NCBI GenBank assembly: GCA_910587225.1
Contig: CAJULT010000003.1
Location: forward strand, 13,855 to 77,854
DNA: 64,000 bases
Source: an uncultured Christensenellaceae bacterium
GTDB taxonomy: Bacteria; Bacillota; Clostridia; Christensenellales; UBA1242
Direction: 5' to 3'
Shown: one piece after another, positions 1 to 32,946 of the stretch
Numbering within the stretch: position 1 is the stretch's first letter
How the letters are laid out: each line of letters starts with the position of its first letter
The notes under the pieces: model-generated
Database searches by the model: none
The model's input: only the letters and a program-made list of their open reading frames with translations
What the model was told of the DNA's origin: nothing
Made by a program: the position numbers and the translations under genes

Positions 1-3000
1 TTACATCTTCGCCTTTGGCGTTAGTAACTTTAAGTTCAAGCACGAGCTCACTTGCGTCGTATGGTCTAGGCGCACCTTCTGCCTCGTCTGGAGTGCGAAC
101 AACTGCTGTAAAGGTGTAACCTTTTCCATTAATTATATCGTACACGGTTGAAGTTTCAATTGAATCAATGTTTGCGGTGTGGTTCATGCCAGTGTAGAAA
201 CCTTTACCAGATACATTGATAATAATAGGATGAGCGTCGATTGTAACATTATTTCTAAGAATATACTTGCCAGTTGCATCACTACCTGCCCAACCAGTAA
301 AGTTGTCAAGGCTTGCATCTTCTACGAAATATCTTCTTGCGCTGTATCCACTACCAATGTTAAATACATCACCAGTTATTACAAAACGTTCCGAATTTTC
401 AAGCTCAGCGCCAAAAGTTACAGCATTTGTATTATCAGTGCTGCCATCAGCATTATACATAAAGTATACAGTGCCGTAGTCGTTTCCATTTGCTGCAACA
501 AATTCGCTTGTGCCTGTGTAATAAGTCTTTAAAACCTCGTCCTTGATTACAAGTTGGTTTTTCTTAATTGTAACATTTACTTCGTCTGAAAGTACTTTGT
601 ACTCAGCAGTAGAGTCAGTTAAAGGAGAACTTCCAGCTTGCAGTACTACAACATATACATAAGTGCCGCTATCTTTTACATTTTTCAATGTTAAGATATT
701 TCCCTCGCAAACTGGAGTTTCAAGGTCGTTCTTGTTTGCCCAGTAAGCCTTGACAACCTTGTCACCGTTTTCAAGAGTGTTACCTGCCACAATTTCAATG
801 CCTTCGCTCTTGCCATATTTAGTAAAGTCGCTTGAAAGTGTTGCGGTAGCAAAAGTTTGATCCTGTCCAATATAGTAAACATCGTACTCTGTTTCGTCAA
901 CGCTAGCGGTAACATAAGCTGCCTCGTCGCGTGTCCATATTGCAACAACAGTTACTCCGTCTACTGAAACGCTTGTTGGAGCGTAAACATTATATTTAAG
1001 TACGTCGTCTACAAGCTCTGCATAGATTGTGTTATGGTTGTCTTTGTTAACCCACTTAGCAATCTTATAGCCAGGTCTTGTAAGGTCAAAGTTTGCAAGT
1101 GCGCTTGCTTCATCGCCATAAGCAACTTCAACATAATATCTTCCATCCTCAGCTTCAATAGCACCCTCAGGCTTGAAGATTTCGTATCCCACATAGCTTA
1201 TATAGAATTTATATATATTAGGAGTATACTTAGTATCAATAGTAAGAGCAGTAGCAGTATTATCGTAATAGAAATCTCCATGAAGAAGAGAAGCTATGTT
1301 TGCATCTGTTAGGGCTATGGTAGTACCATTTGCCTTCTTGCTTTCATCCTTGCTGAAATAATCAAATGATGAAGCTGTATTTCCAACTTTTGACGCATCA
1401 AATGCTGCATCCCAAGTTTTAGTTTCTGAATTGTAGTTAAGATAATAGGTGTTATTTAAAAGAGTGATTGTGTCACCAACTTTAAAGGTTGACCAAGTTG
1501 TACTACCTTTGTCAGCAGTGATAACTACGCTGTATGTAATCTTATTCCAATCAGCAGGGTTAAAGTCAACTGAAAGCGCGTTTGCGCCGCCATAAACATC
1601 GCCCCACTTTGCGTCATATTGGAAAGTGCCAGTAGAAGAAAATTCTCTATCGCTATCTTTCCAAGCCCAATTGTTAAATCCGTTGTAACCAATCTTTTGG
1701 TAAAGACCAGCTTTGTTGATGTCAAGAGCTGCAAGTGCTTCGCTTTCGGCGTCATCATCCAATGCATATCTTGCCAATTTTTCCTGTTCGTGATAATATG
1801 TTTCAGTAGTAGCAATGCTGCCATCTTTTACTGAAACAGTGCCATACTCGTCTTCACCTTCCGCAAAATTAATGGTAATTGTCTTTTGCTTAATCACAGG
1901 TTGAACAATAATTTCAGTGATTTCGCTGCCTTCATTTGCAAGTAATGCAAGTACATTTGAGTTGTTTACAATTTCGCTAAGACTAGTCCCGCCTGAAAGG
2001 ATAACTACCTTTCCGTTTTGCAAATACCAGCCTGCTAGATAGTACCCAGTTGCAATATTAATATTTTTTACATCGCTAGACATGGTATAAGTTACTGTTT
2101 TCCCAGATGCAGTTGCACCTGATGACGTGTAACCAGTGTCCACAAGCCCGCTTACTGCGTCTTCTTTTTGTCCATAATATTGGTCATTTCCGTTAAGAGA
2201 AGTTACATAACCAGTATTATCTACAACAAAATTTGCTTTCTTAGTCACATACTTTATTACAAGAGTGCTATCAACTGCACCAAAAGTAACTGTGAATGTA
2301 TCAGCAAATGTATCAACATTATCCCCGAAATTATCTTCTTTTGAAGGTTTTAAATCCTCGGTAGCACCATAAACAAGTGCAGGTTCATTGCCCTCAGATT
2401 GATCTATGAGCAAATATTTAGCAAGATCTAAATTTTTGTTTATAGTCAGCGTTGCTTTGTCGTTTGGTCTATACTGTCCTTCTGGTGAAACTGTAATTTC
2501 GCCAAAGAAGCCTTTGTTGTCACTTGTGCTATTAAACCCGTCTTTGTTTGAGAATAGCAACTCTCCATCTACATAAACTTCATAGTTAAGAGAGTAAACT
2601 TGAGCAATAGCTTTAAATTTCACCTCATATCTATAACCTCTAGCAGCTGCAGAAGTTTGATCTTTAATTTCAAGAGGGAAGCTGAAAATACGTCTTCCTT
2701 GATCCTTATTAGTACTCTCGTCCACTGTGAAAGTGATTGTTTTGCTTTCTATTTCATCGCCAGCTTCATTATAATCATATCTGGTTACTGTAAGTGCATT
2801 AAATCTATAATATCCATTTTGAAGCATTGAAACATAAGCATATCCGCCTTCAAGGCTTGCTGTAACAGTTTTAGAAGCTGTTGTACTATCTGCATATGCA
2901 TTGTTGTATTTTGCAGCAACACTTGCAAGCTCGTCTGTAGACTCAAAACCACCGTAAGTATCATGTTCAACACTTAAATCAATGTTATATGTAAGAGTGG

Positions 3001-4291: not shown

Positions 4292-5197
4292 TCAAACTGC
4301 AGTACCTAAAGCCGTCTTAGAAGTGTACTTATAAGCAGCTCCGCCATTTAAGTTGTATTGTACAGCGTAACCCTGCGCGCTTGCAGACCCGCTACCAACT
4401 GTTAAAGTACCAGCTATTGCGGATTCGGTAGTGTAATGTGCAGTCTTGCCATCACGGCTCCCACCGCGATAAATTTTAGTTGTGCTATCAACAGTTCCAA
4501 TGCCGTTTCCACCAGCAGTGTTGTAGCAGTTTATTATGTACGCTCCCGTCGTCTTTCCAGCCAACACACCAAAGTTGTTTGTAGCAACACTTGAATTGTT
4601 AACCACGTCGCCTACCGTCAAGTCATAAATAATGGCAGAGCCGCATGCGCCAAAAAGTCCCGCAACTCCACTCGCACCATTATAGATTGACTCATCTATA
4701 AGTCGAATACTTTTAATTGTGTGCTTGTTTCCGTTAAATACACCTTTGAAAGTAGTAGTACTATTCCCTATTGGCGTCCATAATGAAGAGGAAAGGTCAA
4801 TGTCTTGAGTTAGCTCATATTTGCCGCTCACATAGGTTGGATTTCCAACCATTACCATATACGACAAAAACGCCAAGTCATCGGCGCTCTTAATTTGATA
4901 ATAGCCATTTTCCGTGTTGACATTCAAGCTTGTTGAAGCGAGTGTGTCTGCATTGCCAAACTTAGACACCCAGTTATTCCCGCCGCTCACAACCACATCA
5001 GCCTCGGTTGGAATTTCCGTCTTCGCTTGGGTTGGCGCTTCACTTACGCTTTCATCGGCAAAAGCCTGCACTACACGCGTTGATGTGTCAGCACCCAAAC
5101 TAGCATCTCCTTTTAGTGATGGAATAAGACAGCCAACGCCTCCCGCAAGAAGCATAGCCGCCATACAATAAAGCCCTTTGAAAAATTTCCTCTTCAT
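4292..5197 (-). CDS. N-terminal part of the same surface protein: signal peptide plus GLUG-like beta-helix module, ending at an in-frame TGA
   Basis: 301-aa ORF. N-terminus MKRKFFKGLYCMAAMLLAGGVGC is signal-peptide-like. Motifs VAGLFGACG and FGVLAGKTTGAYIINCYN resemble GLUG/beta-helix repeats. The C-terminal residues YAVQYNLNGGAAYKY open a repeat unit that is cut by the TGA at 4292-4294. Confidence 0.8.
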   Translation of the reverse strand: MKRKFFKGLYCMAAMLLAGGVGCLIPSLKGDASLGADTSTRVVQAFADESVSEAPTQAKTEIPTEADVVVSGGNNWVSKFGNADTLASTSLNVNTENGYYQIKSADDLAFLSYMVMVGNPTYVSGKYELTQDIDLSSSLWTPIGNSTTTFKGVFNGNKHTIKSIRLIDESIYNGASGVAGLFGACGSAIIYDLTVGDVVNNSSVATNNFGVLAGKTTGAYIINCYNTAGGNGIGTVDSTTKIYRGGSRDGKTAHYTTESAIAGTLTVGSGSASAQGYAVQYNLNGGAAYKYTSKTALGTAV

Positions 5198-10502: not shown

Positions 10503-10531
10503 TTGACAATTATTTTTGTTTATGTTAATAT
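10503..10531 (+). promoter_or_regulatory. Promoter firing into the ORF-free structured region
   Basis: TTGACA (10503-10508), 17-nt spacer, extended -10 TGtTAATAT (10523-10531). Confidence 0.6.
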
Positions 10532-10537
10532 AATACT

Positions 10538-11113
10538 ATCACGAAGGTGCAGTATTCTAGTCAACTAGTGCGAATGAGAATGCCGAAATAAGCATTGATG
10601 GCACAACTATGAAGTTCGTGGTGCTGGCTTTGGTTGCCCAAATCGGGGCTGGTACTGGGAGTTAAGATTTTTGGGTGGCGAGTAATGGCATACACGCTTA
10701 AGCCCAATTATCGCGGAGACCCAAGTGGGTAAAGAAAATATGAAGGCATATCTATTTATCGCTTGGATGAGAAACCTGCAATGTGGCGAAAGTTGCGTGC
10801 AGTGTAGCCTGCTTTGAGTGGATTGTTTGGAATAGAGCGTAAATCAATATTTATCCAAAGTACACGGAAGATATTCGGTTGCTCTTGAAATTACGTCCGC
10901 AAAATAAAGATAAGTTCGTACGATGTTGTTAAGGAAATCTTCTAGACTGTTTGCGTGAGCGAGATACTATGGGGATTATAGTGTGGTCTAAGTGGCGATT
11001 CGGTGCAAGTTCTGCGTAAAGGGAAACCGCTCTGCTGGTAACGGAAGAGTGCAGAATTGGGAAATCCAACCGAACCTATGCCGCAAGGTTTACTCATAGT
11101 ATTGCCTTCGTAA
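10538..11113 (+). ncRNA. Large structured ncRNA, candidate OLE RNA
   Basis: About 520 nt (10569-11089) has no ORF of 60 aa or more on either strand, yet the region is visibly more G+C-rich than true spacers. It has a dedicated promoter. A terminal helix can form between ACGAAGGTG (10541-10549) and 11103-11111 (..TGCCTTCGT). Local hairpins include ACTAT/ATAGT (10966-10982), TTGG-gaaat-CCAA (11057-11069) and AACCT/AGGTT (11073-11090). It lies immediately upstream of a small 4-TM protein gene. Confidence 0.55.
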
Positions 11114-11144
11114 ATTAAAATTAAAGCTTTGTGCTAAAATATAT

Positions 11145-20952: not shown

Positions 20953-23900
20953 CTATTTAAGTTCCACCTTGTAGCTTTCGCCAGTTTTGGTAATTACCAA
21001 ACTATGTCCATCCCCGCAAGAGATTGTTCTTTCAGAAATGGTGTTTGTAAGACCGCTGATGCCTTGACCAGAATAGCAGAGGTTATTGCTGCCCGAGGGG
21101 CTTCTTGTGGCGTCGCCTGCAAATTTTATGCCGCTTGCTTCAACATTGCCGTTTATTCTTCCCGCAATAAGAATATATGCAATTCCCCCTAGGTAAACTT
21201 TCCCATTTGTACTTGTACATTCAGGCGCTATATTATTGTAGTTGTAAGACAATAACCCATCATAATTACGTACCACAATACCCGCTAAATAGTAAGTAGC
21301 TGCTCCACCAGAAGCTAAGATTTTGCCGTTATTGCCACTTTCAACAATTCTGCTTGAGCTTCCTATGTTGTTAATTGCAATTCCTGCAACTCTGTAATAG
21401 TAATTTGCTCTAGCGGATTGAATGTTTATATTCGCTCTATTTTCACAGTGAATAATCCTGCCGCCGCCCATGTTGGAAACTACAAAGCCGCCGAAGCTAA
21501 GGTTGTAATTAGAACTTGGTCTTATTTGAATGCTACCCTCATTTACGCAGCTGTCGATAATGCCGCTATTTACTGCAACAAGTCCGCCAATAGCCACGTC
21601 GCGCGCTCCACTGACTGACATGTTCATAGACTGCCCAGTTATTGTCACATTAGAAATATTTCCATAGTTTTTAAGAGCAAGTCCGCCTGCCAAAAGGTTT
21701 CCTTCAACGCTTAAATTGTAGTTTACATTTAACTTAAGTTTTTTTATCGAGCCGCCTTTGCCAATCTCTTTAAATAGCGCAGCAAGCTTCGTGTAATTAA
21801 TAGTAATCTGACCAGTCTTATCAATCTCGCTATAGAAAGTGAGGTTTTCGCTGACTTCTTTATCGTTTACTATAATGGATATTGCGCTTGACAAGTTCAC
21901 GGTTATCGTCTGCCCATTAGCATCGTACTGTCCATAGAAAGTACCATTAAATGCGAAGCCATTTACATCAAATTCAAGGTTTTCTGTTTGTTTGAAATGG
22001 TACTCTGCCAAGTTGCGAACTGCCATATTGTTAAATTGCTCTTCACTCGCAATTAGATAAGGATTGTCAACTGTGCCGTCACCAGCTTCAAACAATTTGT
22101 ATTCTATGTATCCGTCTGGTGCAGTCCAAGAAATAGGCTCTTTCGAGTAAAGGCTGTTTGCATTCTTTCTTACATAAACCTGAGCAGAAATAATCTTACC
22201 CATCCTTCTCGGTTGATAGAAATTGTTTGTGGTTTCGCTAGTTTCAATAATCTCAATTATCTTGCCATTATCATCATAAATGAAATTGCCGTCGTCATCA
22301 CACTTGCCATAAGTCACCTTTACTTTGTAACCAGGTATGTCGCCTTCCTTCTTTTCGCCTTCCCATGGAGTCCAGTTAAATCTATATTCTTCTGTCGACC
22401 AAGAAACAGTTGCCTCTTCTTGCCATGATGGAGCAGGGAGCGTAAAGTCTTCTGTGTTGCCTTTAATCACCATAAAGGTTTGATAGCTTTGACTAGGCAT
22501 TACATCAAATATCAATTTTAGCGAAGTGTAGCCCTCTGGAATATAGATGGTAGTTCCTTCATTAGTAATTTTGTCACCTCTAAACACTAGTTTGAAATTA
22601 CTATGTTGCTTGCTATTTTTATCATAAGATTCTACAAAATCACTTGTAAGTGTAATCTCTTCTCCATCTTTGTTATAGAACGCGATTACTTGCAATTTTA
22701 CATTGTAATATTCAGTTGAGCGAAGTATCTGTTTGTTTTCCAAAAGTTTAGTGATATCAATTGTATAACCTTCATCAGTTTCAATCATATCAAAGTCATC
22801 GCCTGTAACACTTGGTGCTTTATACACCTCTTGACTTTCGCCAAATTTTACAGCAACAAGGTCACTCTTAATCTGATCACTTTCACAAGCATACATTTTA
22901 ATTCTATAAGGGTTTGGAGAATATTCAAGACCTATAGCTTCAAAGGTGTTTCCATTTTGCTCACCTTCGATAATATTTCCCTTCTCATCTACAAAGCCAA
23001 ATTTAGTATTTGCAGTTGTATCATAATCCCATACGATAACACCTTGATTATTTACAGTTACATTTGTAGGCGAAGCCGTCTTTGTGATAGCTTTGCTTTC
23101 AATATAACTACTTGCAAGGACATAACTACCATTTTCGTATCTGCAAACTGCGGAGTTTATAGCTTCCTCAGTCAAAGCTGTGCCAGTTGGAACTGCAAGT
23201 GCACGAACTTTAAATTTGTACTCTGCATTAGGGAATCTTGAAACAATCTGAGCTGTATCAAGCTCTGCTTTAGTAGTTAAAAACTTTTCGGTAACTTCGG
23301 CAGTGCTACTATCTTGAACGTTTTTACTATTATCATGTTCAACGGTCACCTCATAAACGATCTGCCCGTTTACACTTGCGGCATTTGTTGCTTCGTCCCA
23401 TGAAACAATACCGTTATTAAGGGTAACAGCCCCGCTAAGTTTTAACATTGCAGCAGGCACAGTTTCCACTGCGGAAGAAAGTATTATGTATGGTTTCTCT
23501 CCCGCCATCACTTTAGTAAATGTCGCCTCTTGGTCAACATTAAGAGTAAGCTCCTCGCCGCTGATTGTAAGCTTAATTCCATTTGGCAGGAGGGTCGTCG
23601 AAGCGTCTTCTCGCACTTGTGTACCAATACTTGAAATGTAAAACTCTGTTGCAGTTGTTTCTGTCTTTCTATAGTCTGCATCTTCAGCCGTGCCACCTGC
23701 AACATAAGTCATGGTTTTGACTTTATTCATGCTCGGCGAAATATAACTATCTCCGTCTGCTTTATCATTGGATACTTTAAATCTATAATCATCGCCATAA
23801 TCCAAATCTAGTTGGTTTGCTTTGATAGTAAATTTGTTTCCAGCAGCGCTTACTTCAACGTTTTTATTTTTATAAATGTTTTGAATTAAGATATTATCGC

Positions 23901-26900
23901 TATCAATGCGCATGCTTGCTTGGCTCAATCCGCCCTTAATAGAAAGGATAACATAATGATAATAACCACTATCTATTAAATTAAGCCATGCATTGCCATT
24001 TTTATCAGGGCTTAAATCTTTAGGCTTTTCAGTCTCCTTTTCCTTGCGGTAACGCACTTGTGTAACATGCCCATGCGCATTCCAAGAAATAATTCCATTA
24101 TCAAGGGTGAGCGTGTTTTTAATATCAAGGTATACAATTTCAACTTTGTTACTCTTTCCGTTAAGGTTATATTCATTGCCAACAGTATAGATGCTAAGCA
24201 TATAACTGTTTCCGCCAAAGTCTATGCACTTGTCTTGCTTACCATCATTATATGCGTGTGTTTTGAGATCTCGCATATTAAGTGTGAGTGAAAGCACTTT
24301 CCCGTCTTGTATATTTTGTGCAAGTTCTATTGGTTCGTTGAACACATGCCTATTATATATGATTCTACCTTTATTATCTTTATCTTGGATGAGGAAGCTA
24401 GTAATCAGATATTTATCATCCACCTTTTCCACGTTAAAGCAGTATAAGCTATTTTCCCCCTTCAAATGAAGTGTATATAAGTTCGCTGAAACGCGCTTGC
24501 CATTTTCCATAATATCAGTTAGAGTAAATGTCACATAATAATTATTTCTTGAATCTTTAGTATCACTTGAAAGAGTAATTGCCGGCGCTGACGGAAGATA
24601 AACATCATGGCCAAACACTTCCTTTCCATTAATTGTTAACGAGTTTGCCAGGGATTGATTTGAACTTACATTGTTATACCCCGTATATACAGTCTGCATT
24701 GCGGTAATCTTATAACTTCCAGCTGGAATCTGTTTACCAAAATCGTCAAACAATATTTCGTTATTTGCTATACCATTTGAATTCATCATTGCATTCAGAA
24801 TATTCATTACCTGATTCCAGTATGGTATCGTTCCATTTCCATCTAGTGCCGACATTAGCGCCTCTAAGCAATTTGTATCAGTGCCACTACTTGCCGATTG
24901 GAATGTCAAGGTAGAAAGGTCTGGCATAAGCTGTGCTGCATTTACTGTTGCAGTGTAAGTACCATTGCCCTCCGAACTAGTAAATGTGAGTTTAATTAGT
25001 GAGTATTCTATACTTCTCCCTGAGAAACTAAATGGGCTAGAGAAGTTGGTATTTCCGACCATGCTGTAGAAATTGGTAGTTCCATAAGAAGTTTTAATTG
25101 CGTTAAAGAAATCGCTGTTAATTACATCCTCGCGGCTAAACATTAGGTGTCCATTCTCTACTGTTAAAGTTGCTGGAGTTGCATACTTGGTTGTAAGGAA
25201 TTCGGTAGTTGGCTCTGACGCCAAGACAAGAGTATCATTAGAAACTGACACAACTTGAATGGAATAACTAAGCCCCGGAATAAGCTTATCATAAAGGTCG
25301 ATATTGGCTGCAGTAACATACTCATAACCTCTATCTACTTTCTCGTCATTTTCTGTGGTTGTGAAGTAAACATAATAGCCTGTTGCGTCGGTTGCTGACC
25401 ATGACAGTATGTTATTAGATAGGCGAAGATTATTAGTCTTATCTAATTTTCTAATCGTAAAGTTTGAATAAGACTGCATCCAAGTATCATCTTTAAAAGT
25501 GGTCTTTTCTACTTTTATTTGAGCGTCACATGCACCAATTGATTTAAAGAAATCGTTTACATTAATTGCATAACATTCTCTGTCAGCCTTAGTTTTTCGT
25601 ATTGTGTCAAAGTGATAACCATTTTCATCTTCAATCCAAAAACCATGCAGGCTAGATGGCTGAAAGCTTTGTTCATAATGTCCCTTTGTGCCATTAATAA
25701 GCACAGTATCGGCTGTTATTTTAATTCCTCTTGCGTTAGCGTCATAACCAATCACAATGTAGTCATCAGCCATATCTTTGCCACGCAAGTATTGCATTGT
25801 CTTATCTAAAGATGAAGTGTAATTAAATTTAAACTCTTTCAAAGGAGAATTTACATTTCCAACTTTAGCAACGCCTAATTTGAAACTTACACTTCCACTT
25901 ACGTTTATTTCAAATAAGCTTATAAATTCGCCCATTGAGTAAGTACGTACTCCATTTTCCTTTTTATCTGGAGTAAACTGTTTACTTTCATTATTGTAAG
26001 TTGCCCAGAATTCAAGTTCACCTTGTGTTTCTTGCTCTTCATAGAGGGTTATTTCAACTGTTCCATAATCGTTAATCTGAATGTCTGAAATACCTTTAAG
26101 TCTATAACCTTCCTTAATAGACACTATATCTCTTGATGCAAGTTTTTTGTCTGTACTGTCATAACCTATTACGCCGATATCATACATACCGCTTAAATCG
26201 CCAAACTTTTCACTTAAGTCAATAGTGGGCGAATCGGATGAGTCGTAAATTGTATGTCCACCGATTGTAATTTCGTAGAAGAATTCTTTTATAGCTGCGG
26301 CTGCATCAATAGTCAAGATTGCATCTGCTGATAAAGAAAGTCCATTTATATTTTCAAGTCTTTCAATAGTAACAAAACTATCATTTGATTTAATAGCATT
26401 TGTAGCCGCAACTTCAAACTTAACCTCAGTTTCAAGCTCTGTAAAGAAGGTTTTATCAAGGGTGAGAATGTATTTGCTGCCAACTTTTTCAAAGGTGTAG
26501 CCTGTTCCGCTTGCGCCAGCGTCAGTAAGTGCTACAAGTTTAGTGCCGCCAATTTCAACCTCAAAGGTAACTCCACTAAATGAGCTCCAATTGTCTAAGA
26601 TTTCAAATTTAACGCTTGCGTTACTTTTTCTAAGTGTTTCTCTCGAAGTTGTATCATCTTCAACTATAACTATGTTAACATCTTCAACTGCTTGAAGTTT
26701 TGATAGGCTTAACTGCTTGTCGCTTTGCGCCACTCCGTAATACCCAGTTCCGCTTGACAGTTGATAGTTTGCAATTTCTGTTATTATCTGAACCTCATAG
26801 TCACCTTCTCCAAGCCCGTAAAGAACCTGCGATGAAAGCAATAACTGCGTTTCTTGAATACCCGAAATTTTATCTACTTGAATATTGCCATTGTATATAA

Positions 26901-29900
26901 TGACACTATAAGTTAATCCCTCTCCGTTAAAGTCATCGGCAACATTATTCCATGTGATTTTATCTCCAGCAAGGCTAGGTGTAATAGTTTGATCTGCAAG
27001 ATCTTTAAAAGTAAAGCTTGCCAATTGGCTATCAAGATAATAATATTCTACTTCCTGTTGTACAATTTTTGTCACGCTTATAAGCTGCAAATTTACTTGC
27101 TCACCTAGATCAGCAACATTGAAAGATAAGAAACCGTTCACCTTATCAAATCCACTAGCCTCGTTGCCGTTTATGAGAACTTTGTCTATCTGGTTTGGAT
27201 TAGAAATTGTTATGCTTGCGTCTCCTGCTTGATTTACATTAAGTGAAGAAATAGGTGCAAGCTGAGAAACGATAATCACGTTTGAAGACGCAGACGAAAG
27301 ATAATGTGGATTGTTTGCAATTACCATGACTGTTCTAGGTCTAGTGAAATCAATATCTAGTTTATAAGAAACCATTCTCTTGCCACCAGTTTCAGTAACT
27401 GCAGAATAATCTTCTCTTACAACTTCGCCGTCAACATAAATTGTATAAGTTGTATTACCAAGGCTTCCAACTGCCTCCCAGTTGAGAGTTCTATCCTCTT
27501 TAGAGAAAGAAATTTGTGCCGAAACTAGGCTTTCAAGTGTAAGCTGGCTTTGTCCGTCTAAGGTATGCCCTTCAAGAGAAGGAAGATAATATGTATTTCC
27601 CTCGCTCTCATTTTTGTATGCCTTGATTTGAACTTTAACCGATACGCACTGCTCATAAGCTGAGGCGAACTCACTATCTTTTTCTAGCTGAGATTGAATG
27701 TACCCGTCTAAATCAAAAGTCTTAGCATCAAGATAGCGTTGAACCACATAGTTGCTCTCTCTTCCAACAACGGTTAATATTAAGCTGTAATTGTGTGTTA
27801 ATCCCGAGTAGCCATCTGTTGATTCATTAGGATCTACAAAGGTTAAAATGCCATTTTGATATTCAATGTTCGTCGGGCGAAGAAGTCTTTTGAAATTGTA
27901 GGAAAGCTGATCGCTATCTATATAGTAATTGTTGTCTTGGTCTGGCTTGGCTATGTAGGTTATCGAAAGCGAGAAATCGCTTGTAAAGCCCAGAAGAGAT
28001 AGTTTGCCGCCATTAAGCTCTAACTCTTGCCCATCCTTTTGTACCAATATTTTTAAAGCTTGTGAGTTTGCACTTACGCTGAGCACTTCATTTTTATCAA
28101 TCGTAATTTTAGGAGTTGCAAGTTTAGTAGCAACAATTTCACTTGCTGGCGACTTGGTGTGAATTTGCGCTTCTGCGTCAGATGCTACCGCCTCGACAGA
28201 AATGTTATAATCGCCCGCGCCTTTAAGCTGCCCGCCGATTGTGAAATCATAAGTTTTTTGTATGTTTCCATCTCTGTAAACATTGGCAACCTCTCTGCCA
28301 TCAATTTTGATAACATATTTGTATGTAAATTCATCCTCTGATTCGATAGTTAAAATTTTGCTGTCGCTATCAAATGAAAGGGTTGGCGCTGTCAGCGCTT
28401 TTGTAACAAAGTAAGGACCATCGCTAGGCAAATATTCAAAATAGCTATCCCCATCCACAAAATCGGCATCCAAATAGTTGTTGATTCCGCTTTCGGTCGC
28501 TCTGGTATAAATTTTTATGTAATAATAGCCAAAGTCGAGCTTTTCTTTGATTTTGGTATCTTGGGTAACTTCATGCGCTACAAGCTCTCCTAGTGTTCCG
28601 CCCTTAACAAAGTCTTTGTCAACTTTATAAATGTAATATTCATATTCACATTCCCCGCTTACACCTTCCCAAGCAAATAAGCCATTTTCTTGGTTTGCTG
28701 CCGCTTTAGAAACTGCATCTAGTATGGTTAAGGTTTTATTAACCCTAACTTCATTTGCCGCTCCATCCTTGCGATAAGCGGTAAGTGTAAGATTGTAAAC
28801 CTTTCCGTTCGGCTGACCAAGCCTGCCGATGTTAATTTGACCTTTTTCATCAGGCACAACCTCAGTTGTTTCGCCGTTGATTGTCAGTTTGTATTCTGCA
28901 TTTTCATCTTTTGCAAAAGTCAAAATGCTGTTGCCATCCGAGTCAAGACTATGGATAAGACTAGAAATAGTATCAAATAAATAGTACTGCCTTTTCTCAA
29001 CACGAGAGTTGAGAACTCTTGCCTGACCGTCAAGCTCCTTTAAAATATCATCATTTACAAAACAAGGAAGACTTGTCACATTTAGCGCCTGCTCACCTTT
29101 CTTGCCATCTAAGTCTAGCGGTAAGGATATGTGATTTCCCGATTTTGCAGTATTTAAGTATGCGGTCAGTCCGCCATATTCAATCTTATAATTTTCGCCA
29201 TATGAAGAAGGAATAAAGTCTATTTCAAGTTTTCCACTCTGTACACGATAGGTAAACTCTGGTTTTGGCAAAATCGCAAACACCTTAGTTGTCGCTCTGC
29301 TTTTGCTATAAAAATTGTCTTTGTAATAACCACCTTTCGCGCGAACATAGAATTCATAAGTGCCATAATCAAGTTCTGCAATATCCTCAATTTCAATTAT
29401 GCCGCTGTCGCCAGTTTTAAGGTTGACATACTTTACTAAATAACCAGTATTAGACTTGCTCCATGCCAGCTGTCCTGATGGAACGCCTACTGCGACTTCA
29501 TCTAGATTGTAATTGAACTCCACCGCACTAGGTTTTGTAACTGTTATGCTTTGGTAAGATGAGAACTTTTCTTTGGTAGGGTCAAATGCTTCTAGTTTAA
29601 TTTCAACTGACTGCCCGTCACCATAATTGGCGAAATCAAGGTCGACGCTATCGCCATTAAAGTTTGAATAAATTTCAACTCCGCCCACGCTAACTTTGTA
29701 TCTTGCCAAAGGATCTTTATCCCAACTGAGTGAAACGAGATTGTTGTCAAAATCTTCATCAACTGAGGCGTTAAAATTTGAGATTCTTTCCATTGCATAG
29801 TAACTTTCAAAAATGGTTATCTGCTTTGACGAATCAACATACTTGTTTCCGTTTGCCACAATGCTGATTTCCATTTCACCTTCGTGAGGAAGCTGAAATT

Positions 29901-30414
29901 GAATGGTAGTATCTTGCGGTCTTGATGGGGTTACTTCGGTTTGCTGGTTGTCGCAAATGACGGTATAGCTTGTCGGTCTTGTAATCTGATTTTCACCGGC
30001 CTCGTTTTCCACATACACAAATGGCGCATCCCAGTTTAAAAGGCCTCCTTCGCTAACCACAAAATTGGTTGGAGCATCAAAGACATGCTTTACTATAATC
30101 GGAGCGCTTGCCAAAGTCGAACCATTGTATTTAACTTGTACAAGCCCACGCCCACTTTGAACCCCCGCATAGCCGCCGTCTACTGATTTAAAAAGTTCAG
30201 GTTTAGTCACGCTAAAAGTCACATCTTCCTTTTTCACGTTTTTAAGACTGACGTAATCAAAAAAGTCTATTACCTCCTCGCTGACTTCATATTTGGAGAT
30301 AATAAATTCATCCTTTAAAAATTTTGCACTTGCGCTGCTGCCCTTTGTGCAGGCTGATAAAGTAAGGGTAAAAAGAAAGAGTGCCGCGGCAGCAAAAAAT
30401 ATTCTTCTTTTCAT
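20953..30414 (-). CDS. Giant surface lipoprotein (3,153 aa): many Ig/FN3-like modules plus C-terminal GLUG-like beta-helix
   Basis: Lipobox LTLSAC. Module boundaries recur with motifs such as LNWDAP, LSWDKD, LAWSKS, FAWEGV, LNWEAV, ITWNNV, LSWSAT, ISWNAH and VSWDEA. The C-terminal roughly 450 aa has repeated GG(L/F)V..N.G.I..C.N motifs. SD GAAGGA. Confidence 0.9.
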   Translation of the reverse strand: MKRRIFFAAAALFLFTLTLSACTKGSSASAKFLKDEFIISKYEVSEEVIDFFDYVSLKNVKKEDVTFSVTKPELFKSVDGGYAGVQSGRGLVQVKYNGSTLASAPIIVKHVFDAPTNFVVSEGGLLNWDAPFVYVENEAGENQITRPTSYTVICDNQQTEVTPSRPQDTTIQFQLPHEGEMEISIVANGNKYVDSSKQITIFESYYAMERISNFNASVDEDFDNNLVSLSWDKDPLARYKVSVGGVEIYSNFNGDSVDLDFANYGDGQSVEIKLEAFDPTKEKFSSYQSITVTKPSAVEFNYNLDEVAVGVPSGQLAWSKSNTGYLVKYVNLKTGDSGIIEIEDIAELDYGTYEFYVRAKGGYYKDNFYSKSRATTKVFAILPKPEFTYRVQSGKLEIDFIPSSYGENYKIEYGGLTAYLNTAKSGNHISLPLDLDGKKGEQALNVTSLPCFVNDDILKELDGQARVLNSRVEKRQYYLFDTISSLIHSLDSDGNSILTFAKDENAEYKLTINGETTEVVPDEKGQINIGRLGQPNGKVYNLTLTAYRKDGAANEVRVNKTLTILDAVSKAAANQENGLFAWEGVSGECEYEYYIYKVDKDFVKGGTLGELVAHEVTQDTKIKEKLDFGYYYIKIYTRATESGINNYLDADFVDGDSYFEYLPSDGPYFVTKALTAPTLSFDSDSKILTIESEDEFTYKYVIKIDGREVANVYRDGNIQKTYDFTIGGQLKGAGDYNISVEAVASDAEAQIHTKSPASEIVATKLATPKITIDKNEVLSVSANSQALKILVQKDGQELELNGGKLSLLGFTSDFSLSITYIAKPDQDNNYYIDSDQLSYNFKRLLRPTNIEYQNGILTFVDPNESTDGYSGLTHNYSLILTVVGRESNYVVQRYLDAKTFDLDGYIQSQLEKDSEFASAYEQCVSVKVQIKAYKNESEGNTYYLPSLEGHTLDGQSQLTLESLVSAQISFSKEDRTLNWEAVGSLGNTTYTIYVDGEVVREDYSAVTETGGKRMVSYKLDIDFTRPRTVMVIANNPHYLSSASSNVIIVSQLAPISSLNVNQAGDASITISNPNQIDKVLINGNEASGFDKVNGFLSFNVADLGEQVNLQLISVTKIVQQEVEYYYLDSQLASFTFKDLADQTITPSLAGDKITWNNVADDFNGEGLTYSVIIYNGNIQVDKISGIQETQLLLSSQVLYGLGEGDYEVQIITEIANYQLSSGTGYYGVAQSDKQLSLSKLQAVEDVNIVIVEDDTTSRETLRKSNASVKFEILDNWSSFSGVTFEVEIGGTKLVALTDAGASGTGYTFEKVGSKYILTLDKTFFTELETEVKFEVAATNAIKSNDSFVTIERLENINGLSLSADAILTIDAAAAIKEFFYEITIGGHTIYDSSDSPTIDLSEKFGDLSGMYDIGVIGYDSTDKKLASRDIVSIKEGYRLKGISDIQINDYGTVEITLYEEQETQGELEFWATYNNESKQFTPDKKENGVRTYSMGEFISLFEINVSGSVSFKLGVAKVGNVNSPLKEFKFNYTSSLDKTMQYLRGKDMADDYIVIGYDANARGIKITADTVLINGTKGHYEQSFQPSSLHGFWIEDENGYHFDTIRKTKADRECYAINVNDFFKSIGACDAQIKVEKTTFKDDTWMQSYSNFTIRKLDKTNNLRLSNNILSWSATDATGYYVYFTTTENDEKVDRGYEYVTAANIDLYDKLIPGLSYSIQVVSVSNDTLVLASEPTTEFLTTKYATPATLTVENGHLMFSREDVINSDFFNAIKTSYGTTNFYSMVGNTNFSSPFSFSGRSIEYSLIKLTFTSSEGNGTYTATVNAAQLMPDLSTLTFQSASSGTDTNCLEALMSALDGNGTIPYWNQVMNILNAMMNSNGIANNEILFDDFGKQIPAGSYKITAMQTVYTGYNNVSSNQSLANSLTINGKEVFGHDVYLPSAPAITLSSDTKDSRNNYYVTFTLTDIMENGKRVSANLYTLHLKGENSLYCFNVEKVDDKYLITSFLIQDKDNKGRIIYNRHVFNEPIELAQNIQDGKVLSLTLNMRDLKTHAYNDGKQDKCIDFGGNSYMLSIYTVGNEYNLNGKSNKVEIVYLDIKNTLTLDNGIISWNAHGHVTQVRYRKEKETEKPKDLSPDKNGNAWLNLIDSGYYHYVILSIKGGLSQASMRIDSDNILIQNIYKNKNVEVSAAGNKFTIKANQLDLDYGDDYRFKVSNDKADGDSYISPSMNKVKTMTYVAGGTAEDADYRKTETTATEFYISSIGTQVREDASTTLLPNGIKLTISGEELTLNVDQEATFTKVMAGEKPYIILSSAVETVPAAMLKLSGAVTLNNGIVSWDEATNAASVNGQIVYEVTVEHDNSKNVQDSSTAEVTEKFLTTKAELDTAQIVSRFPNAEYKFKVRALAVPTGTALTEEAINSAVCRYENGSYVLASSYIESKAITKTASPTNVTVNNQGVIVWDYDTTANTKFGFVDEKGNIIEGEQNGNTFEAIGLEYSPNPYRIKMYACESDQIKSDLVAVKFGESQEVYKAPSVTGDDFDMIETDEGYTIDITKLLENKQILRSTEYYNVKLQVIAFYNKDGEEITLTSDFVESYDKNSKQHSNFKLVFRGDKITNEGTTIYIPEGYTSLKLIFDVMPSQSYQTFMVIKGNTEDFTLPAPSWQEEATVSWSTEEYRFNWTPWEGEKKEGDIPGYKVKVTYGKCDDDGNFIYDDNGKIIEIIETSETTNNFYQPRRMGKIISAQVYVRKNANSLYSKEPISWTAPDGYIEYKLFEAGDGTVDNPYLIASEEQFNNMAVRNLAEYHFKQTENLEFDVNGFAFNGTFYGQYDANGQTITVNLSSAISIIVNDKEVSENLTFYSEIDKTGQITINYTKLAALFKEIGKGGSIKKLKLNVNYNLSVEGNLLAGGLALKNYGNISNVTITGQSMNMSVSGARDVAIGGLVAVNSGIIDSCVNEGSIQIRPSSNYNLSFGGFVVSNMGGGRIIHCENRANINIQSARANYYYRVAGIAINNIGSSSRIVESGNNGKILASGGAATYYLAGIVVRNYDGLLSYNYNNIAPECTSTNGKVYLGGIAYILIAGRINGNVEASGIKFAGDATRSPSGSNNLCYSGQGISGLTNTISERTISCGDGHSLVITKTGESYKVELK

Positions 30415-32175: not shown

Positions 32176-32326
32176 AAAAATTCTATACATCTTTTTGCTT
32201 GTTGCAGTAGTTGCAATCGCGATTGTAAGCACCATAGTGCTTAATATCAAAAAACGAGAACGCGACGATCTACAAGATAAAAACGACCAAATCCCTATCA
32301 TAACAATGAATTTAGAAAATTTTTGA
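32147..32326 (+). CDS. Small single-TM protein (59 aa), in the position of a DivIC/FtsB-like gene
   Basis: Hand-translated as MEKENSGKLKKILYIFLLVAVVAIAIVSTIVLNIKKRERDDLQDK... It falls below the track's 60-aa cutoff. SD AAGGAGAG is upstream, and it overlaps the yabQ 3' end. Confidence 0.4.
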   Translation: MEKENSGKLKKILYIFLLVAVVAIAIVSTIVLNIKKRERDDLQDKNDQIPIITMNLENF

Positions 32327-32343
32327 TTTTTGCCCTAAAATTA

Positions 32344-32372
32344 TTGACAAGCGCTGTTTAATTTGTTATTAT
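32344..32372 (+). promoter_or_regulatory. Promoter of the tRNA-Asn transcription unit
   Basis: TTGACA (32344-32349), 17-nt spacer, TGtTATTAT (32364-32372). Confidence 0.6.
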
Positions 32373-32397
32373 TAAGTGCAACAATTAAATGTTGTAT

Positions 32398-32502
32398 GCC
32401 TCAGTAGCTCAGTGGTGGGCAAGAGGCTGAACGCCAAGACCGCAAGGTCTGCGTACGGAGCAGAGCGGAGTTAAACCGATGAGGTTAACAGCCGAGTGCT
32501 CC
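32398..32502 (+). other. tRNA-Asn-derived leader: partial tRNA copy with a 38-nt insert, followed by a 20-nt perfect antisense copy of the tRNA body
   Basis: 32398-32418 is identical to tRNA-Asn positions 1-21. 32419-32456 is an insert carrying a GNRA hairpin (ACGC-ca-AGACC-GCAA-GGTCT-GCGT, 32431-32454). 32457-32482 is a degenerate D/anticodon-arm copy. 32483-32502 is the exact reverse complement of 32537-32556. Confidence 0.8.
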
Positions 32503-32517
32503 ATTAATTAAACTTGT

Positions 32518-32592
32518 GCCTCAGTAGCTCAGTGGTGGAGCACTCGGCTGTTAACCGATAGGCCGTAGGTTCGAATCCTACCTGAGGCGCCA
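32518..32592 (+). tRNA. tRNA-Asn (anticodon GTT)
   Basis: 75-nt cloverleaf. Acceptor GCCTCAG/CTGAGGC; D-arm GCTC-AGTGGTG-GAGC; anticodon loop CTGTTAA; T-arm GTAGG-TTCGAAT-CCTAC; encoded CCA. Confidence 0.9.
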
Positions 32593-32596
32593 AAAT

Positions 32597-32631
32597 AATC
32601 TTCCGTGAAAACTTTTCATGGAAGATTTTTA
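32597..32631 (+). terminator. Terminator after tRNA-Asn
   Basis: Long hairpin AATCTTCCGTGAAAA / TTTTCATGGAAGATT followed by a T-run. Confidence 0.75.
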
Positions 32632-32652
32632 TTCAACAGGAGAAGGTCGGTT

Positions 32653-32946
32653 ATGGAAACACTAGGCAATATTTTACTTATAATTGTATCTATTTGCACA
32701 TTTTTATCTTACTTTCCGCAAATTATCAAATGCTTGAAAACTAAAAAGGGTGAAGATTTAAGTATATGGTCTTGGGTTTTGTGGGTTGTAAGTTCATTGG
32801 CTTACACTCTTTACGCAATTTTATGTCAAGATACTGTTATGTTGATAGTAGAAACCTCTCTTGAATTATTGTTCTGTGTAATAATTCTTATTTGCGCAAT
32901 TGTTTTTAGAAAAAAGAAAAATGTTAAAATAGAAAGAGAGGCATAA
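32653..32946 (+). CDS. SemiSWEET / PQ-loop family membrane protein
   Basis: About 97 aa counted from METLGN (SD AGGAGAAGG). Three TM helices with an FPQ motif (LSYFPQIIKCLK). Confidence 0.75.
   Translation: METLGNILLIIVSICTFLSYFPQIIKCLKTKKGEDLSIWSWVLWVVSSLAYTLYAILCQDTVMLIVETSLELLFCVIILICAIVFRKKKNVKIEREA

Follow-up and report, generated by a model that had tools for sequence, protein, structure and literature searches.

The window analysed here, a 64,000-nucleotide (nt) stretch of DNA from an uncultured Christensenellaceae bacterium (contig CAJULT010000003.1, positions 13,855–77,854), contains a tRNA-Asn gene whose precursor carries a conserved, structured 5′ leader of ~120 nt (32398–32517) that belongs to no Rfam family. 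This leader is an undescribed, conserved, tRNA-derived RNA motif of poorly studied gut Clostridia, and we consider it likely that it is a selected, structured RNA. Sequence and structure are both kept, with compensatory changes, in a small sample of four lineages. Within the leader, a degenerate sense copy (block c) and an antisense copy (block d) of the middle of the tRNA lie side by side, and the leader folded on its own forms three hairpins, P1 to P3, in the window and in two of the related loci compared below (L026 and L029). The elements of the locus are listed here; the promoter and terminator calls are consensus matches only.

32344–32372 (+): sigma-70-like promoter, TTGACA-17 nt-TATTAT, TG-extended (consensus scan, 11/12)
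32381–32395 (+): small hairpin near the predicted transcript start, ACAAU...GUUGU (minimum free energy (MFE) fold)
32397–32418 (+): direct-repeat copy of tRNA-Asn positions −1 to 21 (100% identity to 32517–32538)
32423–32438 (+): invariant 16-nt block, GAGGCTGAACGCCAAG (identical in four species; once in the window)
32431–32454 (+): hairpin P2, ACGC-CA-AGACC-GCAA-GGTCT-GCGT (nine pairs, 100% paired in four species)
32457–32482 (+): block c, degenerate sense copy of tRNA positions ~17–46, 5′ strand of P3 (sequence reading)
32483–32503 (+): block d, antisense to tRNA positions 19–39, 3′ strand of P3 (complementary to 32536–32556)
32504–32517 (+): A/U-rich spacer, presumed RNase P leader context (unpaired in folds)
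32518–32592 (+): tRNA-Asn (GTT), CCA encoded (ARAGORN; Rfam RF00005, 72.5 bits)
32597–32627 (+): intrinsic-terminator-like hairpin, 14-pair stem then TTTTATT (consensus-type match)

The leader contains copies of tRNA-Asn pieces

A repeat finder returned two perfect repeats that connect the leader to the tRNA. The first is a direct repeat of 22 nt (32397–32418 and 32517–32538, 100% identical), which adds the preceding T to the 21 nt of the original prediction; its copies enclose a 99-nt insert, and the 5′ copy sits 120 nt upstream of the tRNA. The second is an inverted repeat, in which 32483–32503 is 100% complementary to 32536–32556 over 21 nt, one more than the 20 nt first reported. Each of these 20/21-mers was found only at its two sites in the window with up to 3 mismatches allowed, and the number expected from dinucleotide shuffling was 0.00. 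The GNRA hairpin at 32431–32454 and the degenerate anticodon-arm copy at 32457–32482, with the loop AGTTAAA, are as they had been described. The upstream region thus offers a 5′ acceptor strand, a damaged D arm and a degenerate anticodon arm, without a T arm, and it is not called as a second tRNA: ARAGORN and Rfam call only 32518–32592. The 3′ part of tRNA-Asn is not duplicated, its 3′ 25 nt being present once in the window, and the two other tRNA genes of the window (tRNA-Gly and tRNA-Ser) have no comparable repeats. Four assemblies of this species made independently (L014–L017) agree exactly over 32300–32660, which rules out an assembly artefact.

The signals for transcription agree with the original prediction: the promoter matches the consensus at 11 of 12 positions and no terminator-like site occurs between it and tRNA-Asn, the sole such site lying 3′ of the tRNA. 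The −35 and −10 hexamers are also kept in the related loci L024 and L026, and tRNA-Asn is the only gene downstream of the leader ahead of the terminator. On these sequence signals, we infer that leader and tRNA-Asn are transcribed as one unit. A 13-codon open reading frame (ORF) from 32389 was rejected, as it has no ribosome-binding site and the relatives lack the ATG. Just 3′ of the −10 hexamer, L024 (4832–4853) and L026 (4831–4853) carry a palindrome, ACAATTAA(N)TTAATTGT, which is longer than the window hairpin found in the same place (32381–32395) and could either stabilise the 5′ end as a hairpin or serve a DNA-binding protein as its operator.

The leader is conserved in related genomes

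The closest genome records are metagenome-assembled genomes of uncultured Clostridia, 'Eubacteriales' or Christensenella-like bacteria, including Candidatus Onthoplasma, which is filed under Christensenellaceae. Carriers of the leader fall into four species-level lineages, namely the window, L024/L025, L026 and L029, of which L024 and L026 are sisters. In L024/L025 and L026, the gene order is giant protein, RluA, YabP, YabQ, a 59-amino-acid (aa) protein, leader and tRNA-Asn. L029, obtained by a conserved-block pattern scan of metagenome contigs, represents a more distant lineage with the same yabP–yabQ neighbourhood. Protein identity to the window is 57–59% for RluA, 65–68% for YabP and 36–50% for YabQ, and L024 and L026 are 84–88% identical to each other. 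Across this distance, leader identity between carriers is 79–91%, above all 200 shuffles (maximum 0.77), and the spacer before the tRNA and the 80 nt 3′ of it are at shuffle level. Given that neighbouring proteins are only 36–68% identical and that the spacer and 3′ flank are randomised whereas the leader is not, we conclude that the leader is under constraint.

Other loci of this neighbourhood lack the element or do not reach it. The tRNA of L150–L157 is identical to that of L029 and follows a closely similar promoter region, with ~166 nt including the element absent; in L029 itself, the element lies ~165 nt downstream of the promoter. In L159–L161, a promoter and a short flank, both resembling those before the leader copy in the window, stand directly before tRNA-Asn without a leader. 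There is no tRNA at the site in L027 (YabP homologue P0129), and the contigs of the YabP homologues P0122 and P0126 stop short of it. In loci reached through the downstream DAO oxidoreductase, tRNA-Asn does not adjoin that gene, synteny being kept on the YabP side. The original prediction had named absence from close relatives as a sign of a recent neutral rearrangement, and the comparison speaks against one: the element, with base-pair covariation, has been kept at RluA, YabP and YabQ identities of 36–68%. Two related lineages lack it.

A covariance model of the leader (R1) recovered only the known copies among 38 sources. No match to the non-tRNA part of the leader was found by blastn among phage and plasmid records. 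Loose pattern scans of viral contigs gave noise (L030–L109, with L033 a coding region), and stricter scans gave nothing or chance coding matches; a metagenome match, L028, was rejected as a chance match within a GC-rich coding region. Permissive searches of Rfam 15 returned only chance-level microRNA hairpin models for the window leader, as a result of its long inverted repeat, and no family match for the relatives L024 and L026.

L029 (~700–800, minus strand) and L150–L157 (~4000–4090 in L150) also share ~95 nt between the promoter and the leader or tRNA, containing CTCCCTCCC and a hairpin, TTGCGATTAGCC..GGCTTTTCGCAA. The opposite strand of this stretch reads as a strong ribosome-binding site (GGGAGGGAG), and the stretch may be the 5′ region of a divergent CvpA-like gene rather than tRNA leader.

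A predicted three-hairpin fold with compensatory changes

The original prediction treated the upstream sequences as four separate elements. They are better described as one fold, in which the 5′ copy provides the 5′ strand of P1, the 38-nt insert is the conserved P2, and blocks c and d are the two strands of P3. In P1, the copied 5′ acceptor strand GCCUC, which corresponds to the first 5 nt of the tRNA copy (32398–32402), pairs with GAGGC; the remainder of the copy is the damaged D-arm sequence, enclosed within the hairpin. The P1 pairs are kept in all four species, two C-G pairs having become U.G in L024, and the enclosed D-arm copy has survived intact in L024 and L026, shows damage in the window and has been deleted from L029. 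The invariant block GAGGCTGAACGCCAAG comprises the 3′ strand of P1 (32423–32427), a UGA linker and the start of P2.

P2 is paired throughout in the four species. Its inner stem reads AGACC/GGUCU, AGGAC/GUCCU, AGAAC/GUUCU and AGGGC/GCCCU, with loops of GCAA, GCUA, UUUA and GAUA, and two pairs have changed on both sides (A-U/G-C; C-G/A-U/G-C). P3, the pairing of c with d in the leader-alone MFE fold, has one closing-helix pair that is A-U in the window, G.U in L024 and L026, and G-C in L029; the closing helix of L024 and L026 also contains tandem G.A/A.G. Besides GAGGCTGAACGCCAAG, the conserved leader blocks are TTAAACCGA..GGTTAAC..CCGAG, and GGAGC and GCGGARTTAAACCGA of block c are conserved in the four species. 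In the three-hairpin alignment, 94% of pair cells hold standard pairs, compared with 26–37% when the partners are slid by 1–3 columns. The G.U pairs and the conserved promoter point to an RNA of the + strand, and a minus-strand reading was rejected on the same grounds. In L026 only, an extra 41-nt hairpin (CCCUGAAA...UUUUAGGG; 4926–4966) is present on the c side.

Block d can pair with the leader or with the tRNA

Comparison with related genomes, proposed as a check in the original prediction, located the antisense block in L024, L026 and L029, each time with a 1-nt bulge. Block d reads GGTTAAC-A-GCCGAGTGCTCC in the window, GGTTAAC-TA-GCCGAGTGC in L024, GGTTAAC-AC-GCCGAGTGC in L026 and GGTTAAC-CA-ACCGAGCGCTC in L029. 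In the three relatives it forms 17–19 pairs with the tRNA, so that perfect complementarity over 20/21 nt is not a general feature and belongs to the window species alone. Block d is ancestral and, in the relatives, imperfect.

Pairing of d with c and pairing of d with the tRNA are both possible in all four species, and the latter is always the stronger by prediction. Duplex energies are −43.5, −36.1, −36.1 and −28.9 kcal/mol for d:tRNA in the four species and −14.5 to −20.4 kcal/mol for d:c, the window values being −43.5 versus −20.4 kcal/mol. The MFE fold of 32380–32635 (z = −7.8 versus shuffles) contains the d:tRNA duplex with the T arm intact; as first proposed, this duplex and the cloverleaf exclude each other. 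The same fold places the upstream acceptor copy on the 3′ acceptor strand of the tRNA, as suggested by the earlier proposal that the two 5′ strands compete for it.

The precursor can be described by two predicted states: A, with leader hairpins and cloverleaf, and B, in which the leader pairs with the tRNA. State B lies below state A by 19.0, 14.8, 15.3 and 4.8 kcal/mol in the four species; these energy figures ignore tertiary contacts, modifications, proteins and real kinetics. The original prediction also called for folding that mimics transcription. In prefix folds of the growing transcript, d moves from c to the tRNA once ~30 tRNA nucleotides have been added, before the anticodon or acceptor stem can form.

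A possible folding switch and competing explanations

The function of the motif is probably cis-regulatory. In our best reading, which we hold tentatively, the leader may be a cis-acting folding switch on tRNA-Asn maturation that makes the precursor bistable. In state A, c would hold d in P3, the tRNA would fold into the cloverleaf, and RNase P would release mature tRNA-Asn and the free leader. In state B, d would abandon c, its weaker partner, and pair with the D/anticodon region as the tRNA emerges; in the thermodynamic model, the only 3′ acceptor strand is then taken by the upstream acceptor copy. The product would be a long molecule unable to become tRNA-Asn and, in the window species, would contain a duplex of 21 bp or more, a potential substrate of RNase III. 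How precursors divide between A and B would determine the tRNA-Asn yield. The choice would be made as transcription proceeds, and elongation speed, RNase P capacity or a bound factor could adjust it. It is conceivable, although we regard it as somewhat doubtful, that the nascent transcript in this way chooses between the cloverleaf and a dead-end or differently functional tRNA-like fold and couples tRNA-Asn supply to transcription speed, RNase P capacity or a factor.

Several observations weigh against the folding switch or against the structure on which it depends. Positions 17–45 of the tRNA are identical in all carriers and leave no variation in which covariation of d with the tRNA could show. 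The one informative substitution in d, T to C in L029, can still pair with c and no longer pairs with A26 of the tRNA. The L029 energy gap of 4.8 kcal/mol lies within the stabilisation by tertiary contacts and modifications that the model ignores, the direct-path barrier from A to B is 22–35 kcal/mol (a heuristic estimate), and a cloverleaf, once formed, may leave the antisense strand no chance to act. Gene conversion could explain why the 5′ copy matches the tRNA; in L029, this copy extends 12 nt into functionless flank, and in L024 it is decaying. The element was lost in the L150 lineage and is thus not essential, and its absence from both L150–L157 and L159–L161 shows the leader to be dispensable. 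As for the fold, 168 of 500 shuffles reach the observed count of pairs changed on both sides, a control of only moderate weight with so small a set of sequences, and the covariation rests on few substitution events (four lineages, two of them sisters). RNAalifold pairs d long-range with the first tRNA-derived module, which means that the leader fold is not settled and that P1 and P3 are less certain than P2; it also proposes a small hairpin in c (AYGGAGC..GCGGARU), which contains one double change, C-G to U-A, and has very little predicted stability.

Some of the same observations would suit a leader that works elsewhere than on its own tRNA, as a stable small RNA that is co-transcribed, freed by RNase P and active in trans on mRNAs, small RNAs, tRNA-Asn precursors or a tRNA-binding protein, with the likeness to tRNA being a relic or mimicry. 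Three compact hairpins followed by an unstructured A/U-rich spacer would yield a stable product after the RNase P cut; the parts not taken from the tRNA are conserved and covarying (P2 and the invariant GAGGCUGAACGCCAAG block); the L029 change in d preserves the internal P3 helix and not the tRNA pairing; and the distance of the L029 element from its promoter implies that the 5′ end of the transcript is not required. We nevertheless think a trans-acting RNA unlikely, as there is no evident target, d is sequestered in P3, and the near-perfect complementarity of d to the tRNA is left unexplained while c has diverged. The pseudo-anticodon loop has GUU in two lineages only and AUU in L024 and L026, a pattern that speaks against mimicry of the anticodon.

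In our estimation, it is somewhat less probable again that the element is a neutral or nearly neutral relic. Here a tandem and fold-back duplication would be harmless since the cloverleaf forms first, and gene conversion would homogenise the copies. This account finds a place for repeat boundaries that vary by lineage, like recombination tracts rather than a fixed functional unit, for the restriction of the perfect 21-nt antisense to one species, for the damaged or lost D-arm copies of the window and L029 and the decaying acceptor copy of L024, for loci that lack the element with their tRNA unchanged, and for the high barrier from A to B. Gene conversion cannot, however, account for the invariant non-tRNA block, for a compensated P2 stem with four sequences or for conserved internal-loop nucleotides of c that are unlike the tRNA, and at 36–68% neighbour-protein identity unconstrained DNA has been randomised, as in the spacer and 3′ flank. 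Finally, tRNA genes, including those for tRNA-Asn, are common integration sites, and a direct repeat around a 99-nt insert together with the presence/absence polymorphism of L029 versus L150 could recall an attL/attR remnant at tRNA-Asn or the mark left by a small mobile element that duplicated its target site. The original prediction had already set a simple integration scar aside, and the evidence makes one highly improbable. It is the 5′ part of the tRNA that is copied and not the 3′ part, no integrase or transposase is present among the genes within ~5 kb of the locus, and the relatives have the same flanking genes, upstream synteny included, which together largely refute an integrase scar. 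In addition, the repeat boundaries vary by lineage, unlike a fixed target duplication, and the ends of the L029/L150 indel do not line up with the repeats. Each locus has a single copy of the block, with no other in the window or the 38 sources, and no homologues were found among phage, plasmid or viral-contig sequences.

Origin and history of the element

The arrangement of its modules suggests that parts of tRNA-Asn were duplicated, in tandem and in inverted orientation, to give the element, which was then retained. Relative to the tRNA, the order is −1 to 26, then UGAGGC(U), P2, a diverged ~17–47 (c) and the reverse complement of 19–40 (d); the UGAGGC(U) module resembles the 3′ acceptor strand or the 5′ strand of the anticodon stem. 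In L029, c continues across the variable region (CCGATAGGTCG) and meets the antisense block directly, and fold-back copying at the variable loop would give this c–d arrangement. The direct repeat spans −1 to +21 in the window, ~−4 to +26 in L026 and −12 to +9 in L029. These differing boundaries, and the 12 nt of flank in L029, indicate continuing recombination between the copy and the tRNA. The simplest history, drawn from few taxa, would be that the element was gained by the common ancestor of the window, L024/L026 and L029/L150 lineages and later lost from the L150 lineage.

The acceptor stem of the tRNA itself also differs between species. The window tRNA-Asn has U4-A69 (position 69 being 32579), whereas the relatives have U4.G69, and this pair makes the 3′ acceptor strand of the window tRNA (CUGAGGC) match the GAGGC strand of P1, the same in every species. 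Here too, leader and tRNA may have exchanged sequence.

Comparison with known systems

Among known kinds of RNA, the leader is closest in its proposed working to an RNA switch carried in a 5′ leader. It resembles a T-box (RF00230) in being a structured 5′ leader of Firmicutes with a codon-like complement to a specific tRNA anticodon and with mutually exclusive helices; its GGUUAAC even holds the Asn codon AAC. T-box leaders, by contrast, detect tRNA in trans through 3–4 nt, and the genes that they precede and control encode an aminoacyl-tRNA synthetase or serve amino-acid biosynthesis or transport; control is exerted by a terminator/antiterminator with a conserved T-box sequence. Here the pairing covers 17–21 nt of the D and anticodon arms, the leader has no terminator, and the downstream gene is tRNA-Asn itself. 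No match to RF00230 was obtained at E values up to 10 for 32300–32660 or up to 5 for L024 and L026. For want of an RF00230 match and a leader terminator, and with the tRNA as the only downstream gene, a T-box riboswitch was rejected.

In a synthetic, theophylline-dependent RNase P riboswitch, a tRNA precursor has a 5′ leader whose alternative structures either permit or prevent cleavage by RNase P, and only the single-stranded leader near the cleavage site is sequestered (PMC7897497). This is the closest engineered analogue; the present leader is natural and would sequester the tRNA body and the acceptor strand. No natural leader antisense to its own tRNA was found in the open-access literature.

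The closest natural precedent for a small-RNA reading is provided by fragments of tRNA spacers, that is, conserved processing by-products with a role of their own. The 3′ external transcribed spacer of the Escherichia coli glyW-cysT-leuZ transcript acts as a small RNA (sRNA) sponge. Such fragments are short, little structured and not tRNA-derived, and they pair with Hfq-dependent sRNAs, whereas the candidate fragment here is a predicted three-hairpin RNA made of tRNA pieces. A partial direct repeat of a tRNA beside the intact gene is also seen at integrase attachment sites, although there the 3′ part is copied, kilobases of mobile DNA are bracketed and an integrase is present; in our locus, the 5′ part lies 120 nt upstream, accompanied by an inverted middle copy, and the arrangement is kept across genera without mobile genes. 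In the split tRNA genes of archaea such as Nanoarchaeum, an extra leader pairs with its complement to direct tRNA assembly. Those leaders pair in trans between half-genes, promote tRNA formation and are removed by the splicing endonuclease; the present case is bacterial, the complement is in cis and it competes with the cloverleaf.

Genomic context and other features

Upstream of the locus lie a divergent gene for an RluA-type pseudouridine synthase and then a cluster of yabP, yabQ and a small-protein gene; downstream are genes for a PQ-loop protein and then a DAO-type oxidoreductase. GDSL lipase, ThyX and SHMT are also encoded nearby. A giant ORF of 3153 aa (20953–30414, minus strand) has a signal-peptide/lipoprotein-like N terminus and no Pfam match on record, and homologues of 2200–3700 aa occupy the same position beside the RluA gene in all relatives. 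The window also contains a full-length OLE (ornate, large, extremophilic) RNA at 10528–11124 (+ strand; 355.7 bits versus a gathering score of 50), which fits an anaerobic Firmicute.

In all six of the tRNA-Asn sequences compared, the first pair of the anticodon stem (32544/32560, tRNA positions 27/43) is a C.U mismatch, which is non-standard in the Rfam alignment. Two short-read contigs, L018 at its start and L156 at its end, break within the tRNA-Asn gene, and these breaks may be an effect of repeats or multiple tRNA copies on assembly. The leaderless tRNA-Asn of L159 (5745–5819) has U1-A72, in place of the G1-C72 of leader-bearing tRNAs, and an AspRS/AsnRS-type synthetase gene, gatC and an amidase (gatA-like) gene are found near it (1–1723). 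U1-A72 is a feature used by GatCAB in the tRNA-dependent route to Asn-tRNA, and the lineages may differ in how tRNA-Asn is charged.

Implications

In the prevailing view, bacterial tRNA levels are set mainly at the promoter and by decay, and the leaders of tRNA precursors are disposable. To our knowledge, no natural cis-regulatory leader of this kind has been described for a bacterial tRNA. If the folding switch is real, a leader antisense to its own tRNA would constitute a new layer of control over a single tRNA species and the natural counterpart of engineered RNase P riboswitches. The locus is also a clear example of how the pieces of a tRNA gene, duplicated, inverted and reused, can make up a structured RNA. 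Even if its function proves modest, the leader is an undescribed RNA motif, and its covariance model can be used to trace it.

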